Shown piece by piece: positions 3,071 to 63,846 of a DNA stretch of 64,000 bases. The position numbers were made by a program, and so were the translations under genes. Position 1 is the stretch's first letter. Each line of letters starts with the position of its first letter. The notes under the pieces were generated by a model that saw nothing but the letters and a program-made list of their open reading frames with translations, was not told the DNA's origin and ran no database searches. Source of the DNA: Escherichia coli. Lineage in GTDB: Bacteria; Pseudomonadota; Gammaproteobacteria; Enterobacterales; Enterobacteriaceae. The stretch lies in assembly GCF_002854065.1 (NCBI RefSeq), contig NZ_CP024147.1; one strand, 5' to 3'.

Positions 3071-3223
3071 CTACTTCTTCGATTCGTAAGCGAGAACTGC
3101 CTTAAACTCCATACCACGCTCTCTGATACTCAACTCACATAACGAGTCGCCTACCATGAGCGTGAATCCCAGTACTGTACAACACAGTACTATGATTGCC
3201 ACAAGGGCATATTTTGTTAGCAT
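3071..3223 (-). CDS. hokX: Hok/Gef-family membrane toxin (type I toxin-antitoxin), 50 aa
   Basis: [50 protein letters not shown]; hydrophobic helix plus SLCE...AYES motif typical of Hok; GGAGG Shine-Dalgarno (rc of 3229-3233) 6 nt upstream of ATG 3221-3223. Confidence 0.75.
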
Positions 3224-3330
3224 GTCTTGCCTCCCTGCAAAGAAGAGACTAACATCCGAATTGCTACGTTCGAACGCGAGCCTCAGGTTGATAGAAATAT
3301 CGCCTGGGGCTTTTGTCCATCTGGAACCTC
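3224..3330 (+). ncRNA. sokX: Putative Sok-type antisense RNA opposite the hok mRNA leader (coordinates approximate)
   Basis: Expected from hok/sok locus architecture; exact ends not determinable from sequence alone. Confidence 0.2.
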
Positions 3331-3430
3331 GCGAATGCTTAACGCCAGACAGCCTCAAGCACCCGACGCCATTCTATACCTGATAATTCTTCCAGCGGCG
3401 TTCACGTTTAAAATCAGGAATGCTGCTCGC

Positions 3431-3469
3431 AAAATAAAAACGCCCCCATCATTTCTGACAGAGGCGTTT
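3431..3469 (-). terminator. Intrinsic terminator downstream of cysH (end of cysJIH operon)
   Basis: On minus strand: stem AAACGCC...GGCGUUU followed by U-rich run (A-run 3431-3439 on plus strand). Confidence 0.6.
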
Positions 3470-3486
3470 AATTTATCCGGCAATAT

Positions 3487-4221
3487 TTACCCTTCGTGTA
3501 ACCCACATTCCCTTTTTAAGCCAAAGAAACGCGTTTCTTCTTCCGCCATGCCGGGTTCCCATTTACGGGTTGTATGGGTATCGCCCACCGATAAATATCC
3601 TTCGTCCCATAATGGGTGATATTTCAGGCCATGTTTTTGCAGGTACTGATAAATAGTTCGGTTATCCCAGTCGATAATCGGCAGCACTTTAAATACGCCA
3701 CGCTGAATTGCCAGCACCGGTAAATTGGCGCGGCTGCCGGATTGTTCACGGCGCAGGCCAGCAAACCAGGTTTGCGCATTCAGTTCTTTTAGCGCCCGGT
3801 TCATCGGTTCGACTTTGTTGATGTCATTGTACTTTTCAATGCCTTCAACGCCCTGTTCCCACAGTTTTCCGTAGCGTGCTTCCTGCCAGGCTGCGCTTTC
3901 GGTAGCACGGTACACTTTCAGGTTGAGCTTGAGTTTGTCCGTTAACTCGTCAATAAAGCGGTAGGTTTCCGGGAACAAGTAACCGGTATCGGTGAGGATC
4001 ACTGGAATATCCGGGCGAATCTGATTCACCAGATGCAGGCTCACCGCCGCCTGAATGCCGAAGCTGGAAGAAAGCACATATTCACCGGGCAGATTATCCA
4101 GCGCCCAGGCTACGCGGCCTTCAGCGTCCAGTTTTTCCAGTTGGGCGTTAGTTTCCGCCAGCGCCAGAATGCGATCTACCTTCGGCAGTTCGTTCAGGGC
4201 GTTTAGATCGAGTTTGGACAT
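3487..4221 (-). CDS. cysH: Phosphoadenosine phosphosulfate (PAPS) reductase CysH, 244 aa
   Basis: Translation from [14 protein letters not shown]...; C-terminal ECGLH motif; ORF-track upstream extension judged non-coding. Confidence 0.93.
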
Positions 4222-4239
4222 AGATTCCTCACTGTTTGC

Positions 4240-4282
4240 CTTGCCTGATGCGACGCTCACGCGTCTTATCAGGCCTACAAGA
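4240..4282. repeat. REP (repetitive extragenic palindromic) element between cysI and cysH
   Basis: GCCTGATGCGACGCT...GCGTCTTATCAGGCCTACA palindromic unit. Confidence 0.7.
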
Positions 4283-4294
4283 CCGGGCTGATGG

Positions 4295-6007
4295 TTAATC
4301 CCACAAATCGCGCGCCGGATCGAGCACCGGGCGAATGATGCCCGCACGCACCGTAAAGTCGCCGAAGCCTTCACCCGCTTCGCGCTCTTTCGCCCAGCGC
4401 CCTATCAGTTCATCAAGCGACGCCAGGATTTCCGGCTCGGTGATGTTTTCTTTATACATCCGTGGGATACGTGTCCCAATGCGGTTGCCGCCAAGATGCA
4501 GGTTGTAGCGACCCGGCGCTTTACCCACCAGGCCCACTTCCGCCAGCATCGCGCGACCACAACCGTTCGGGCAGCCTGTTACACGCATCACGATATGCTC
4601 ATCGCTGACACCATGTTTCGCCATTAAATTATCGATGTTGTCGATAAAAGACGGCAGGAAACGCTCCGCTTCCGCCATCGCCAGCGGGCAAGTCGGGAAT
4701 GACACGCAGGCCATTGAGTTTTCACGCTGCGGCGTGACGGCATTCATTAACCCGCTCTCTTTGGCGATCCTCTCGATCTTCGCTTTCTCACTTTCCGGCA
4801 CACCGGCGATGATCAGATTCTGGTTCGCCGTAATGCGGAAATCACCTTTGTGGATCTTTGCGATCTCCAGCAGGCCGGTTTTCAGCGGACGCCCCGGATA
4901 ATCAAGGATGCGACCATTTTCGATAAACAGCGTCAGGTGCCAGTTATCATCAATGCCCTTAACCCAGCCAATACGATCTCCGCGTCCGGTAAACTCATAC
5001 GGGCGAATCGGCTCGAATTTGATCCCCGCGCGACGTTCCACTTCCGCTTTAAATGTCTCAACACCCACGCGCTCCAGCGTGTATTTGGTTTTGGCATTTT
5101 TACGATCGGTACGGTTACCCCAATCGCGCTGAGTCGTCACGACGGCTTCCGCCACCGCCAGGGTATGCTCCAGCGGCAGATAACCAAACTCGCTCGCCGT
5201 GCGGGCGTAGGTTTTCTTATTACCGTGTTCGATGGAAAGCCCGCCGCCCACCAGCAGGTTAAAGCCTACCAGCTTGCCGTTTTCGGCGATTGCCACGAAG
5301 TTCATGTCGTTGGCGTGCAGATCGATATCGTTCTGTGGCGGGATCACTACCGTGGTTTTGAATTTACGCGGCAGGTAGGTCTGGCCGAGGATCGGTTCTT
5401 CATCAGTGGTGGCGACTTTTTCCTGATCGAGCCAGATCTCCGCATACGCGCGGGTACGCGGCAGCAGATGTTCCGAGATTTTCTTCGCCCACTCGTACGC
5501 TTCTGCGTGCAGCTGCGACTCGTAAGGGTTCGAGGTGCAGAGTACGTTACGGTTCATGTCGTTAGCGGTCGCCAGCGCATCAAGACCGACCGAGTGCAGC
5601 ATCTGGTGCACCGGTTTGACGTTCTTTTTCAGAATGCCGTGGAACTGGAATGTCTGGCGGTTGGTCAGGCGAATGCTGCCATAGATGGTGTTTTCACCGG
5701 CAAATTTATCGATCGCCTGCCACTGTTTGGTGGTGATAACTCCACCCGGCAGACGGCAGCGCAACAGCATCGCATGGCGCGGCTCCAGCTTCTGTTCAGC
5801 ACGTTCGGCGCGGATGTCGCGGTCATCCTGCTGATACATGCCGTGGAAGCGGATCAGCAGGAAGTTGTCGCCCTTAAAGCCGCCGGTCAGACCGTCGTTT
5901 AAATCTTCCGCAATGGTGCCGCGCAGGTAGTTGCTTTCAAGCTTCATGCGCTCGGCGTCTGTCAGTTTTCCTTCGACCACTAAAGGCCCTGGATGTTTTT
6001 CGCTCAT
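4295..6007 (-). CDS. cysI: Sulfite reductase hemoprotein beta subunit CysI, 570 aa
   Basis: ORF translation; siroheme/4Fe-4S Cys cluster CPNGC near C-terminus. Confidence 0.95.
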
Positions 6008-12462: not shown

Positions 12463-13777
12463 TCGCACCTCCTACATTTCCCGCCGCCACCAGCGGGAGG
12501 GCTTTGGTTTCTGGTGCCCATAGCCAGGTCACAACAAAACCAACCAACAACACTGCCGCCAGGAGCAATAAGGTGACTTGCATTCCCCACTGCGCCAGCA
12601 CCCACGGCAGCAGGCCAGTACTTACCGCCGCCCCCAACCGACTCATGGCGGTGGCAAAACCGACACCCAGCGAGCGAATGTCAGTAGGAAAACTTTCCGC
12701 AGGCAAAATGCCCACCAGATTACTGACTGCCGAAATGGTGGTGCTGAAGAGAACAAAAAGCAGTAGCGTTAATGAACTGCCGGAAGGCAAACAGGCCATC
12801 ACTACCAGCGTTGCCGCCAGCAGCAAAAAACTTCCCAGCAAAAACTTGCGATGTGCCAGCAGGTGCGTCAGAACTAATCCCAGCAGCGCGCCCACAATTA
12901 ACAACGCATTAAGCATCAGGCTGGCAGTCAGCGCATCTTCCAGTCCAATAGTCTGGGCGATAGTTGGCAGCCAGGTATAAATCACAAACCATGGGATTAC
13001 GAGGCAGACAAAGAAGACGCTGTTAAACGCCGTGCGCCGCCAGTAGCGCAAAGAGAACAAGGTTTTGATGTGTTTATGGGTCGCCGTTGCCACTTCATCG
13101 CCCAGTAAAACATGGGGACCAAAATAGCGATGCACGATAGCGTGAGCTTCTGCAAAACGCCCCTGGCGCAGTAGCCAGCGTGGCGATTCTGGCGTTCCCC
13201 AGCGTAATAACGTAATCAACAACGCGGGCAGAGCTGCCGATGCCAGCAGCCAGCGCCAGGCCTCCGGGTTTTCGGAAATAAAGTGATGTCCGGCAATACT
13301 TGCCAACACATAGCCTACGGTCCACACCACGCTGAATGCGCCCAGCAAAATACCGCGATGGCGGCGCGGGGAAAATTCAGCCAGCAAGGTGTGACCTACT
13401 GAGTAATCGCCTCCCAGACCAATGCCGATCAAAATGCGCAGCCCAATAAGATGCTCTGGCGTGGTGGCAAAAAATTGCAAGAACGAAGCGAGCGTAATCA
13501 GCAAAAAGCTGAAGGTGAAGATTTTTTGCCGACCAATATGGTCGGAGATCCACCCAAGAACCAGGCTGCCAAGAAACAAACCAAGGAGCGCCGAGCCGCC
13601 GATCATTCCCGCCATAAACGGCGTCAGTTGCATGGCGGGCGTAAGTTGAATAATGGCGTAACCAATGACGCCGAGAACATAACCGTCGGTCAGGTGTGCG
13701 CCGAAAGTGAGCGCAGCAATTCGACAGTGAAAACGGTTAAGCGGTAAATCATCCATTCGCACCGGTGAAGTGTTCAT
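12440..13777 (-). CDS. ygcS: MFS-family transporter (sugar-porter-like)
   Basis: Multi-TM ORF; start chosen at MNTSPVRMDD; overlaps ygcR start. Confidence 0.85.
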   Translation of the reverse strand: MNTSPVRMDDLPLNRFHCRIAALTFGAHLTDGYVLGVIGYAIIQLTPAMQLTPFMAGMIGGSALLGLFLGSLVLGWISDHIGRQKIFTFSFLLITLASFLQFFATTPEHLIGLRILIGIGLGGDYSVGHTLLAEFSPRRHRGILLGAFSVVWTVGYVLASIAGHHFISENPEAWRWLLASAALPALLITLLRWGTPESPRWLLRQGRFAEAHAIVHRYFGPHVLLGDEVATATHKHIKTLFSLRYWRRTAFNSVFFVCLVIPWFVIYTWLPTIAQTIGLEDALTASLMLNALLIVGALLGLVLTHLLAHRKFLLGSFLLLAATLVVMACLPSGSSLTLLLFVLFSTTISAVSNLVGILPAESFPTDIRSLGVGFATAMSRLGAAVSTGLLPWVLAQWGMQVTLLLLAAVLLVGFVVTWLWAPETKALPLVAAGNVGGANEHSVSV

Positions 13778-40317: not shown

Positions 40318-40686
40318 AATAAAAAAAGGGAGCACTGTATTCACAGTGCTCCCGGTTCGTTTCGCAGCATTCCAGCTACATTTGTTGCTCCCTGCTCATC
40401 CTTGACAACTTTTCCTCTGGCCTTGCGGCCAATCGTTCATCCTGAACTATTGCTTCCTGCTCACACCACCCCGATGTGATACTTCATCCTGAAGTGTCCC
40501 TGGCCTTCCTGACCCACCGAATCATCCTGACCGGTTCTCATTCTCCATCCTGGAGGTGTCCTTTAACGCGTCCTGCGTCATCCTCTTCGCTTCATCCAGA
40601 AGCCTTTCCCTGAAACACCATCCTGGTGTGTCCTTCAGAAGTGTCATCATCCTGATGTTCACTTCGTTGTCTGACTCCCTGTCGAC
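40318..40686 (-). ncRNA. csrB: CsrB small RNA (CsrA-sequestering), about 369 nt
   Basis: Minus strand starts GUCGACAGGGAGUCAGACAACG..., carries well over a dozen CAGGA(U/A)G-type GGA motifs (seen as CATCCTG on plus strand), ends in hairpin plus U-run at 40321-40358. Confidence 0.92.
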
Positions 40687-57405: not shown

Positions 57406-57793
57406 GACTTACGCCCTTGCGCTTTAAACGGATAGCACCAACTAACATTAACGCCCAGCCCGCAAGGAAGCTCACGCCGCCAACCGGAGTGACAAACGCC
57501 CACAAACGCAGATGGGACAGTGCCAGGCAATAAAGGCTGCCGCTGAACAGCACCGTGCCTAACGCGAGGAAAACGCTACTCCAGTAAAACCAGATACTGA
57601 TGCGACGCTGCATTGCCACCGCCAGACCTAAGATCGCCAGCGTATGAAACGCCTGGTATTCGAGGCCGGTCTGGATCCAGCCCATCTCAACGGCCCCCAT
57701 GGTTTTACTTAACACATGCGCGCCAAAAGCGCCCAGAGCCACAAAAATGAAGCCGCTAATGGCGGCGAAAATCAGCATAAAACGGCTGGTCAT
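57398..57793 (-). CDS. ygdD: DUF423-family inner membrane protein, 131 aa
   Basis: ORF translation, 4 TM; overlaps rlmM start. Confidence 0.88.
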
Positions 57794-57811
57794 GGTCGTA
57801 CCCTACGTAAA

Positions 57812-58729
57812 TTATTGTTCATAACGAAAGCGGAATTTTTCTTGTTCAGCAGCGGCTTTCGCCAGGATCCATTGGCGAAAGGCGGCTATTTTACCCAGTT
57901 CTGCCTGGCTGTCATGACAAACCAGATAAAAAGCGTTTTTACTGACCAGAACATCATTAAACGGGCAAACAAGACGTCCGGCTTCAATTTCAGATTGCGC
58001 CATCACGTTATTTGCCAGCGCCACTCCCTGCCCGTGGATAGCCGCTTGCAGCACCATGGCGCTATGGCTAAAAATTGGCCCTTGCTGAACGTTGATATGA
58101 TTTAACCCCAACTGTCGGGTATATGTCTGCCAGTCACGGCGTGACGCATCATGTAATAGCGTATGTTTAGCCAGATCTTCCGGGGTCTTCAAGGGTTTTT
58201 CGCCAGTCAGCAGTAGCGGCGAACACACCGGCAATAAATATTCGGCGTACAGTTTTTCCACCCGTAGCCCCGGCCAGTTGCCCCGACCATAAAATATCGC
58301 CACATCAACATCATCCGCCAGCTTATCTTCCTGACGATCAACCGCCTGGATTCGAACGTCAATTCCCGGATAAGCTGAATTAAAGCTGGAAAGTCGCGGA
58401 ACCAACCAATGAATGGCGAAACTGGGGAGTAAACTGACCGTCAACGCCCCCTTGGCGCTACGAGCCTGGAGTTTACGCGTCGCTTCGGTTAATTGCGAAA
58501 ATATCTCTTTGATATCGAGGAAATAGCTTTGCCCTTCCTCGGTCAGCAGGAGTGAACGATTACGGCGGCGGAACAGTTTTAGCCCCAAAAAATCCTCAAG
58601 AGACTTGATTTGATGACTTACTGCGGCCTGGGTCACAAAAAGCTCTTCTGCTGCGCGAGTGAAACTTAAATGGCGTGCTGCGGCATCAAAAACTCGTAAG
58701 GCATTTAGCGGTGGTAATCGTTTAGACAT
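57812..58729 (-). CDS. gcvA: LysR-family glycine cleavage system regulator GcvA, 305 aa
   Basis: MSKRLPPLNALRVFDAAARHLSFTRAAEELFVTQAAVSHQIK... Confidence 0.95.
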   Translation of the reverse strand: MSKRLPPLNALRVFDAAARHLSFTRAAEELFVTQAAVSHQIKSLEDFLGLKLFRRRNRSLLLTEEGQSYFLDIKEIFSQLTEATRKLQARSAKGALTVSLLPSFAIHWLVPRLSSFNSAYPGIDVRIQAVDRQEDKLADDVDVAIFYGRGNWPGLRVEKLYAEYLLPVCSPLLLTGEKPLKTPEDLAKHTLLHDASRRDWQTYTRQLGLNHINVQQGPIFSHSAMVLQAAIHGQGVALANNVMAQSEIEAGRLVCPFNDVLVSKNAFYLVCHDSQAELGKIAAFRQWILAKAAAEQEKFRFRYEQ

Positions 58730-58857
58730 GGCTTTTAAACTTTGATGTTAAATGAATTTAACAATTAGATCACAGTGTGTAACCTATTAGTTTTTTTAAT
58801 CTGAGCCATTATAAATTGTCCGTTGAGCTTCTACCAGCAAATACCTATAGTGGCGGC

Positions 58858-59063
58858 ACTTCCTGAGCCGGAACGAAAAGTTTTATCGGAATGCGTGTTC
58901 TGGTGAACTTTTGGCTTACGGTTGTGATGTTGTGTTGTTGTGTTTGCAATTGGTCTGCGATTCAGACCATGGTAGCAAAGCTACCTTTTTTCACTTCCTG
59001 TACATTTACCCTGTCTGTCCATAGTGATTAATGTAGCACCGCCTAATTGCGGTGCTTTTTTTT
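58858..59063 (+). ncRNA. gcvB: GcvB small RNA, about 206 nt
   Basis: ACTTCCTGAGCCGGAACGAAAAGTTTTATCGGAATGCGTGTTCTGGTGAACTTTTGG... with GU-rich TGTTGTGTTGTTGTGTTTG tract and terminator GCACCGCCTAATTGCGGTGC plus T8; divergent from gcvA. Confidence 0.92.
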
Positions 59064-59079
59064 ACCTTGCGATCGCGAA

Positions 59080-59307
59080 TTACTGATCCAGTTCGACCAT
59101 CTCTTTCACGTCAGTACGGTTGATCTGCTGTTTGTTGCCATTAGCGTCTTTATACGAAATCATACCGGTATCGTTATCAGTCTGTGGTTTGCCGTCAGAG
59201 ACGATGGTACGTCCGTCATTGGTGTGCATCACATAGTTCGAACCGGAACAGGCGCTCAGGGCAAAAGTCAGCATACAGGCAGAAATAATTGCGGCAGTCT
59301 TTTTCAT
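59080..59307 (-). CDS. ygdI: DUF903-family lipoprotein YgdI, 75 aa
   Basis: [24 protein letters not shown]...; lipobox LSAC. Confidence 0.88.
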
Positions 59308-59498
59308 CATCTTCTCCTTAAAGCGATTAATAAATCTTAATAGTATTGATTAACAGGCTAAAATTAACGCCTAACACTATTCAGCATATGTTACTGACGC
59401 GGCTTCGCCAGGATATCCAGATAATTCTGATGGTTAGCACTCTCCTTGTATCAAAGTGAATTTTGCGTCACGATCGGTGCATCAAGCCGAGGAGTACC

Positions 59499-60704
59499 AT
59501 GAACGTTTTTAATCCCGCGCAGTTTCGCGCCCAGTTTCCCGCTCTACAGGATGCGGGCGTCTATCTCGACAGCGCCGCGACCGCGCTTAAACCTGAAGCC
59601 GTGGTTGAAGCCACCCGACAGTTTTACAGTCTGAGCGCCGGAAACGTCCATCGCAGCCAGTTTGCCGAAGCCCAACGCCTGACCGCGCGTTATGAAGCTG
59701 CACGAGAGAAAGTGGCGCAATTACTGAATGCACCGGATGATAAAACTATCGTCTGGACGCGCGGCACCACTGAATCCATCAACATGGTGGCACAATGCTA
59801 TGCGCGTCCGCGTCTGCAACCGGGCGATGAGATTATTGTCAGCGTGGCAGAACACCACGCTAACCTCGTCCCCTGGCTGATGGTTGCCCAACAAACTGGA
59901 GCCAAAGTGGTGAAATTGCCGCTTAATGCGCAGCGACTGCCGGATGTCGATTTGTTGCCAGAACTGATTACTCCCCGTAGTCGGATTCTGGCGTTGGGTC
60001 AGATGTCGAACGTTACTGGCGGTTGCCCGGATCTGGCGCGAGCGATTACCTTTGCTCATTCAGCCGGGATGGTGGTGATGGTTGATGGTGCTCAGGGGGC
60101 GGTGCATTTCCCCGCGGATGTTCAGCAACTGGATATTGATTTCTATGCTTTTTCAGGTCACAAACTGTATGGCCCGACAGGTATCGGCGTGCTGTATGGC
60201 AAACCAGAACTGCTGGAAGCAATGTCACCCTGGCTGGGCGGCGGAAAAATGATTCACGAAGTGAGTTTTGACGGCTTCACGACTCAATCTGCGCCGTGGA
60301 AACTGGAAGCAGGAACGCCAAATGTGGCTGGTGTCATAGGATTAAGCGCGGCGCTGGAATGGCTGGCAGATTACGATATCAACCAGGCCGAAAGCTGGAG
60401 CCGTAGCCTGGCAACGCTTGCAGAAGAAGCGCTGGCGAAACGTCCAGGCTTTCGTTCATTCCGCTGCCAGGATTCCAGCCTGCTGGCCTTTGATTTTGCT
60501 GGCGTTCATCACAGCGATATGGTGACGCTGCTGGCGGAGTACGGTATTGCCCTGCGCGCCGGGCAGCATTGCGCTCAGCCGCTACTGGCAGAATTAGGCG
60601 TAACCGGCACACTGCGCGCCTCTTTTGCGCCATATAATACAAAGAGTGATGTGGATGCGCTGGTGAATGCCGTTGACCGCGCGCTGGAATTATTGGTGGA
60701 TTAA
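59499..60704 (+). CDS. csdA: Cysteine desulfurase / sulfinate desulfinase CsdA, 401 aa
   Basis: Translation from [20 protein letters not shown]...; PLP class-V aminotransferase fold. Confidence 0.93.
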
Positions 60705-62056: not shown

Positions 62057-62156
62057 TGCCTGATGCGCTACGCTTATCAGGCCTACATAACTCCTGCAAT
62101 ATTTTGGATTTGCATGATTTGTAGGCCGGATAAGGCGTTCACGCCGCATCCGGCAT
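62057..62156. repeat. Pair of REP elements (BIME-like) between tcdA and mltA
   Basis: GCCTGATGCGCTACGCTTATCAGGCCTACA and TGTAGGCCGGATAAGGCGTTCACGCCGCATCCGGCA. Confidence 0.75.
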
Positions 62157-63548: not shown

Positions 63549-63625
<77 letters not shown>

Positions 63626-63658
63626 ATTAAAATTTGATGAAGTAAAGCAGTACGGTGA

Positions 63659-63735
<77 letters not shown>

Positions 63736-63769
63736 ATCAAAATTTGATGAAGTAAAAGCAGTACGGTGA

Positions 63770-63846
<77 letters not shown>

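Follow-up and report, generated by a model that had tools for sequence, protein, structure and literature searches.

A 206-nt segment on the plus strand of an E. coli DNA stretch of 64 kb (the window, read directly over 57500-59600), positions 58858-59063, is almost certainly gcvB, the gene of a trans-acting, Hfq-dependent sRNA under the control of GcvA, acting through the R1 and R3 seeds and sponged by SroC. A preliminary description had proposed a plus-strand GcvB sRNA of 206 nt, to be checked by a covariance-model scan and by comparison with annotated gcvB, and both checks bear it out. When the whole window is scanned with Rfam 15 at gathering thresholds, the GcvB family (RF00022) is matched at exactly 58858-59063, over the full model (1-204 of 204), scoring 199 bits where 42 is the gathering score (E = 1.1e-46). 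Pairwise alignment with gcvB of K-12 MG1655 (b4443, NC_000913.3 2942696-2942901), an ncRNA with the curated annotation 'small regulatory RNA GcvB', shows the same base at all 206 RNA positions. The K-12 neighbors, rlmM-ygdD-gcvA on one side and ygdI-csdA-csdE on the other, are those found in the window on both sides. The assignment of 58858 as +1 is independently checked because it reproduces the published numbering: the R3 point mutants described for E. coli are G156C, G160C and C162G (PMC9299463), and GcvB nt 156, 160 and 162 counted from 58858 are G, G and C. Both ends of the gene had thus been placed to the exact base from the sequence alone. The identity of gcvB, its anatomy with promoter and terminator geometry and accessible seeds, its synteny and its conservation are direct observations and are described below.

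The locus is nearly universal in the species. Of 5426 complete E. coli genomes, 5425 contain a 401-bp query around it, and in 5378 the identity is at least 99%. Compared with K-12 MG1655, these 401 bp carry only three differences, all in the gcvA-proximal spacer and none in the RNA (T for A at 58734, G for C at 58775 and G for A at 58777, within the poorly conserved gcvA leader). These three spacer substitutions, which are nothing specific for decay, together with an insertion-disrupted gcvB allele in one E. coli strain (TUM1509), are what could be cited for an inactive copy, a decayed pseudogene that is unexpressed in this strain. The probability of such decay is negligible, because the RNA and its control region are fully identical to the functional allele of K-12 (206 of 206 RNA positions, with the promoter, IR1, IR2 and -10 elements discussed below unchanged). 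In addition, the substitutions fall in the non-conserved gcvA leader, gcvA itself is intact, and the window is matched with 100% identity across 58700-59100 by at least one other genome, that of E. coli strain XJ34. The gcvB locus here is the well-studied E. coli gene, already known; since every base agrees with the K-12 reference copy, there is nothing new at it. In the laboratory strain TUM1509 (NZ_CP195093.1, ∼3283-4700), gcvB is disrupted by an insertion sequence, with an ISVsa5 IS4-like transposase gene between gcvA and ygdI, and the match to the window ends at query position 283, corresponding to about GcvB nt 125, inside the stem of the internal terminator t1.

The 206-nt RNA has a minimum free energy (MFE) of -62.1 kcal/mol (z = -3.63), and none of 200 dinucleotide shuffles folds as well. 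The first stem-loop, SL1 (58864-58918, plus strand, as are all RNA elements described here), appears in both the MFE and the centroid fold and is supported by covariation across genera. It is followed by R1 (GGTTGTGATGTTGTGTTGTTGTGTTTG, 58919-58946, GcvB nt 62-89), a G/U-rich single-stranded region known as the main GcvB seed (PMC9299463). R1 is the GU-rich tract that the preliminary description had pointed out: 27 of its 28 bases are G or T, its 19-nt pure G/T run at 58928-58946 exceeds every other run of this kind on the plus strand of the whole window, and the region is unpaired in the centroid fold and in the consensus fold. An A/C-only run of 24 nt (CACAACAAAACCAACCAACAACAC) is present on the plus strand at 12530-12553; it is G/U-only on the minus strand, and is longer than the R1 run. 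Downstream of R1, SL2 (58951-58969, UGGUCUG-CGAUU-CAGACCA) is present in the Rfam consensus structure and in the MFE fold.

The terminator scan then identifies two terminators. The internal one, published as t1 (PMC1557403), corresponds to SL3 and occupies 58971-58991, with a hairpin at 58971-58985 (GGTAGC-AAA-GCTACC) followed by T6; termination at this site would yield a short form of ∼130-134 nt. Yersinia pestis is reported to have two GcvB species, of ∼130 nt and 206 nt (PMC1557403). Beyond t1 lie the conserved region R2 (CACUUCCUGUACAU, 58992-59005, GcvB nt 135-148), a conserved seed used for cycA (PMC9299463), and the R3 seed core (UGUCUGUCC, 59012-59020, GcvB nt 155-163), which is contained in SL4; R3/SL4 also serves as a pairing site for the SroC sponge (PMC9299463). 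Because R2 and R3 both lie past t1, they are present only in transcripts that read through it. The second terminator, t2 or SL5 (59035-59063), confirms the terminator noted in the preliminary description, and consists of a hairpin at 59035-59056 (AGCACCGC-CTAATT-GCGGTGCT, with eight pairs, six of them G-C) and a U8 tail. The U run ends at 59063, which is also the Rfam and the K-12 3′ end, and this U-tailed 3′ end is the expected Hfq-binding end.

The gene downstream of t2, ygdI, encodes a YgdI/YgdR lipoprotein (59080-59310, minus strand; NF033216, 113 bits), and is convergent with gcvB, with its stop codon 16 bp from the gcvB 3′ end. The mechanically called ygdI ORF (MMKK...) begins one codon upstream of the annotated K-12 start. 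A role of t2 as a canonical bidirectional terminator that also serves ygdI was considered and is not supported: read on the minus strand, the hairpin runs into ACAUUAAUCAC rather than a U run, and the terminator scan calls no minus-strand terminator at t2.

On the other side of gcvB, the divergent orientation of gcvA is as the preliminary description had it. The 305-aa ORF at 57812-58729 (minus strand) encodes GcvA, the LysR-type activator of gcvB and gcvTHP, matching the NCBIfam model NF008352 'transcriptional regulator GcvA' with 512.8 bits (cutoff 288), and gcvA is annotated at the matching place in the K-12 and PGAP records. The spacer, 58730-58857, measures exactly the 128 bp given earlier. 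The accompanying proposal that both promoters must be held in this spacer also stands, and can be sharpened: the core promoters of both genes, as well as the GcvA sites, are placed within the conserved, gcvB-proximal ∼76 bp.

For gcvB, a promoter scan finds a sigma-70 promoter at 58823-58851 (plus strand), with the -35 element TTGAGC at 58823-58828 and the -10 element TATAGT at 58846-58851 separated by 17 bp. Nine of the 12 hexamer positions match the consensus, the -10 element stops 6 nt before +1, and, across 10 sequences from six genera, the -10 and the bases between it and +1 show no or almost no variation. The gcvA and gcvB promoters are known to overlap, with a GcvA footprint of 48 bp and two GcvA inverted repeats, ATTAG-N5-CTAAT, the centers of which, counted from the gcvB start, are at -65 and -43 (PMC5002191). 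A pattern match with one mismatch gives the predicted GcvA repeat IR1 (ATTAG-N5-TTAAT, ATTAGTTTTTTTAAT, 58786-58800), the center of which (58793, or -65) agrees with the published position and which is almost invariant across genera. When up to two mismatches are allowed, ATTAG-N5-CTAAT has 15 matches in the whole window against 21 expected, and hence has no window-wide significance; with a motif this degenerate, the argument for IR1 rests on its position and conservation. A weaker, putative GcvA half-site region, IR2 (ATTATAAATTGTCCG, 58808-58822), is placed by the published center at -43 (PMC5002191); it is nearly invariant across genera and overlaps the gcvA -10 element. The first six bases of IR2, ATTATA on the plus strand (-50 to -45), read TATAAT on the minus strand (58813-58808), and are invariant in 10 of 10 aligned spacers.

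The start of the gcvA transcript was reportedly located by Wilson and Stauffer in 1994, 72 nt upstream of the ATG. With such a 72-nt leader, the gcvA start is presumably near 58801, just downstream of the minus-strand TATAAT (58813-58808), and we take this hexamer to be the gcvA -10. The limits of the GcvA footprint are likewise taken to be 58782-58829, consistent with its published size of 48 bp and with the published inverted-repeat centers. On this reading, ∼57 bp separate the gcvA start from that of gcvB, and the core promoters are interdigitated. The gcvA 5′ leader would extend over ∼72 nt (58730-58801, minus strand), its upper end following from the same assignment, and is of low conservation. 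In the alignment of 10 spacers from six genera, 54 of 76 columns are invariant in 58782-58857, compared with 4 of 52 in 58730-58781. This conservation contrast supports a layout in which the regulatory DNA would be the gcvB-proximal ∼76 bp, while the other ∼52 bp would belong to the gcvA leader. The assignment of the gcvA -10 and start is also consistent with the statement that the two promoters overlap (PMC5002191).

Homologues were sampled by scanning the R2 14-mer CACTTCCTGTACAT over one-genome-per-species contigs amounting to 298 Gb. The scan returned at least 120 loci; by estimate ∼2000 chance matches are expected, the pattern being too short for 298 Gb. Sixteen loci were picked from the matches listed, on the basis of the organism's name and of how rich in G/T the sequence upstream of the motif was, and were run through Rfam, which recognized GcvB (RF00022) in 10 of them, with 154-199 bits. 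The other 104 among the loci listed, outside the Rfam scan, are presumed to be chance matches. Among the matches listed, the 14-mer occurs on five contigs of one Candidatus Enterovibrio escacola genome; the one locus from it that was scanned with Rfam gave no GcvB match, and the copies suggest that a mobile element or multi-copy repeat carries the motif by chance. The ten homologues are from Escherichia albertii, Citrobacter werkmanii, Enterobacter (four loci), Superficieibacter electus, Yersinia artesiana and Photorhabdus (two loci), a small, Enterobacterales-biased sample that is selected on R2 and reaches only relatives with exact R2. The invariance of R2 within it is circular, being partly there by construction, because the R2 14-mer was the search pattern.

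The arrangement around the RNA is the same throughout this sample. A tblastn search with the GcvA of the window places gcvA divergent and upstream in 8 of 8 loci with enough flank, with a spacer of 122-130 bp, and ygdI is convergent downstream in eight loci. In the alignment of the 11 RNA sequences, the mean column identity is 87%, and a 42-nt block extending from before R2 through R3 is invariant in 11 of 11, although the search pattern fixed only 14 of these 42 nt. The R3 core, outside the search pattern, is invariant in all 11 sequences, and R1 is conserved across the six genera, except that it is 7 nt shorter in Yersinia and Photorhabdus. GcvB of these two genera is otherwise like that of the window in its divergent gcvA, spacer of ∼122-130 bp, SL1, G/U-rich R1, internal hairpin with a U run, invariant R2-R3 and terminal hairpin, and differs, apart from the shorter R1, in compensatory changes in the upper SL1 and in a shifted register of SL2. 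Salmonella, outside the homologue sample, has a GcvB that differs from that of E. coli by 10 nt (PMC9299463).

Consensus folding of the alignment with RNAalifold recovers SL1, t1, SL4 and t2, with R1 remaining unpaired. SL2 is not called by RNAalifold because its hairpin is in a shifted register in Yersinia and Photorhabdus. Over the consensus structure 95.7% of cells pair, a share that falls to 34-43% if the partners are shifted by 1-3 columns. Changes on both sides are seen in seven pairs, a number reached by 6 of 500 shuffles, and six of the seven pairs are in SL1, where they belong to the inner helix, which has 90.8% of its cells paired. The t1 stem is conserved with one compensatory pair, and seven of the eight t2 pairs never vary across genera. 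The helices other than SL1 are essentially invariant, and covariation therefore neither supports nor contradicts them.

The same alignment bears on whether the transcript could instead be the mRNA of a small protein. A 46-aa ORF (58891-59031, plus strand), with its ATG at GcvB nt 34, exists mechanically, and the closest enteric relatives retain it, with lengths of 43-46 aa. However, Yersinia is without this ORF (none of at least 20 aa), Photorhabdus has unrelated short ORFs with other starts in its place, Enterobacter sp. Ag1 has it shortened to 29 aa, and in Enterobacter sp. Bisph1 it is without a stop. The ORF has no NCBIfam match, its ATG sits in the loop region of SL1, and conservation peaks in the seeds and terminators rather than following codon positions. 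Coding is rejected on these grounds (an ORF that is not conserved, has no family match and starts in the SL1 loop), and we give it practically no chance of being correct.

The 5′ end of this RNA has one further feature. The first eight nucleotides of GcvB (ACUUCCUG, 58858-58865) are an exact second copy of the R2 core (58993-59000), the octamer ACTTCCTG being found on the plus strand at both sites. At the 5′ end, the first six bases, ACUUCC, are unpaired and are kept in all six genera sampled. A search of the literature for the octamer together with GcvB found nothing in searchable text, a negative of little weight, as sequences shown only in figures lie outside its coverage. It is improbable that the 5′ motif is functional in its own right, rather than kept by promoter-proximal or initial-transcribed-sequence constraint; its role in that case may be, e.g., that of a further seed or of a determinant of 5′-end-dependent handling by RNase E/Hfq.

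The elements found in the window can be assembled into a mechanism, drawn largely from published work. GcvA, encoded divergently, would bind the conserved inverted repeats that precede the -35 element of gcvB, and at high glycine would activate the sigma-70 promoter of gcvB and repress its own, overlapping promoter. Activation of gcvB by GcvA is established (PMC1557403); it occurs at high glycine and is opposed by GcvR (PMC1557403, PMC9299463). In the strain studied here the cis elements are seen, and activation by GcvA and glycine and repression by GcvR would follow by analogy with the K-12 literature. Transcription would start at 58858 and end either at t1 (∼nt 134) or at t2 (nt 206), all three seeds being carried by full-length GcvB only. 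R1 would pair with C/A-rich sequences in or near ribosome-binding sites and so block translation initiation on mRNAs of biosynthetic enzymes and of transporters for amino acids and peptides (dppA, oppA, argT, gltI and over 50 more); further targets would be reached through R3 and, rarely, R2. GcvB is known to act with Hfq and to pair through R1 with most targets, of which more than 50 are direct, with R3 serving phoP, lrp and others and R2 serving cycA (PMC9299463). Hfq-dependent repression of dppA, oppA and other transporter mRNAs can be expected here from the 100% identity with the characterized allele. The SroC sponge would pair with SL1 and R3 and direct GcvB to decay by RNase E, in keeping with the pairing with SL1 and SL4/R3 and the RNase E-dependent decay described previously (PMC9299463). 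The GcvA and glycine regulation, the Hfq dependence and the target regulon would in this way be transferred from what has been published for the K-12 allele, which is identical.

The gcvA-gcvB pair resembles other LysR/sRNA pairs such as oxyR-oxyS, in which a LysR-type activator is also divergent from its sRNA, with back-to-back promoters and inverted-repeat sites in the spacer (PMC5002191). It differs in regulator, sRNA family and regulon, with glycine rather than peroxide as the signal, and GcvA has two inverted repeats, not three.

Several other RNA features are present in the window. On the minus strand, 40318-40677 holds a full-length CsrB sRNA, which matches RF00018 along the entire model (1-356 of 356) and scores 384 bits where 71 is the gathering score; it has a terminator and numerous GGA hairpin motifs. 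A match to the sok antitoxin RNA family at 3208-3364 (minus strand; RF01794, 105.3 bits against 59) implies a probable chromosomal type I toxin-antitoxin locus of the hok/sok type near the window start. The ES036 (CssrF) sRNA family is matched at 62079-62121 (minus strand; RF02751, 46.5 bits against 37.6), and also at the syntenic position in E. albertii (39.2 bits). Three tandem tRNA-Met genes (CAT), each with 61.4 bits in Rfam and ∼110 bp apart, are found at 63549-63846 (plus strand), a position that we take to be that of the metZ-metW-metV initiator tRNA cluster of K-12.

The annotation of gcvB differs among E. coli records. In the PGAP-annotated RefSeq records inspected, the gcvB sequence is present with no feature between gcvA and ygdI, and among the E. 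coli records inspected only the curated K-12 record lists the gcvB ncRNA. The missing gcvB in the PGAP records is an annotation gap and no biological difference. As these records carry no feature between gcvA and ygdI, gcvB is invisible to pipelines that rely on such annotations, which would see this sRNA gene as empty intergenic DNA.
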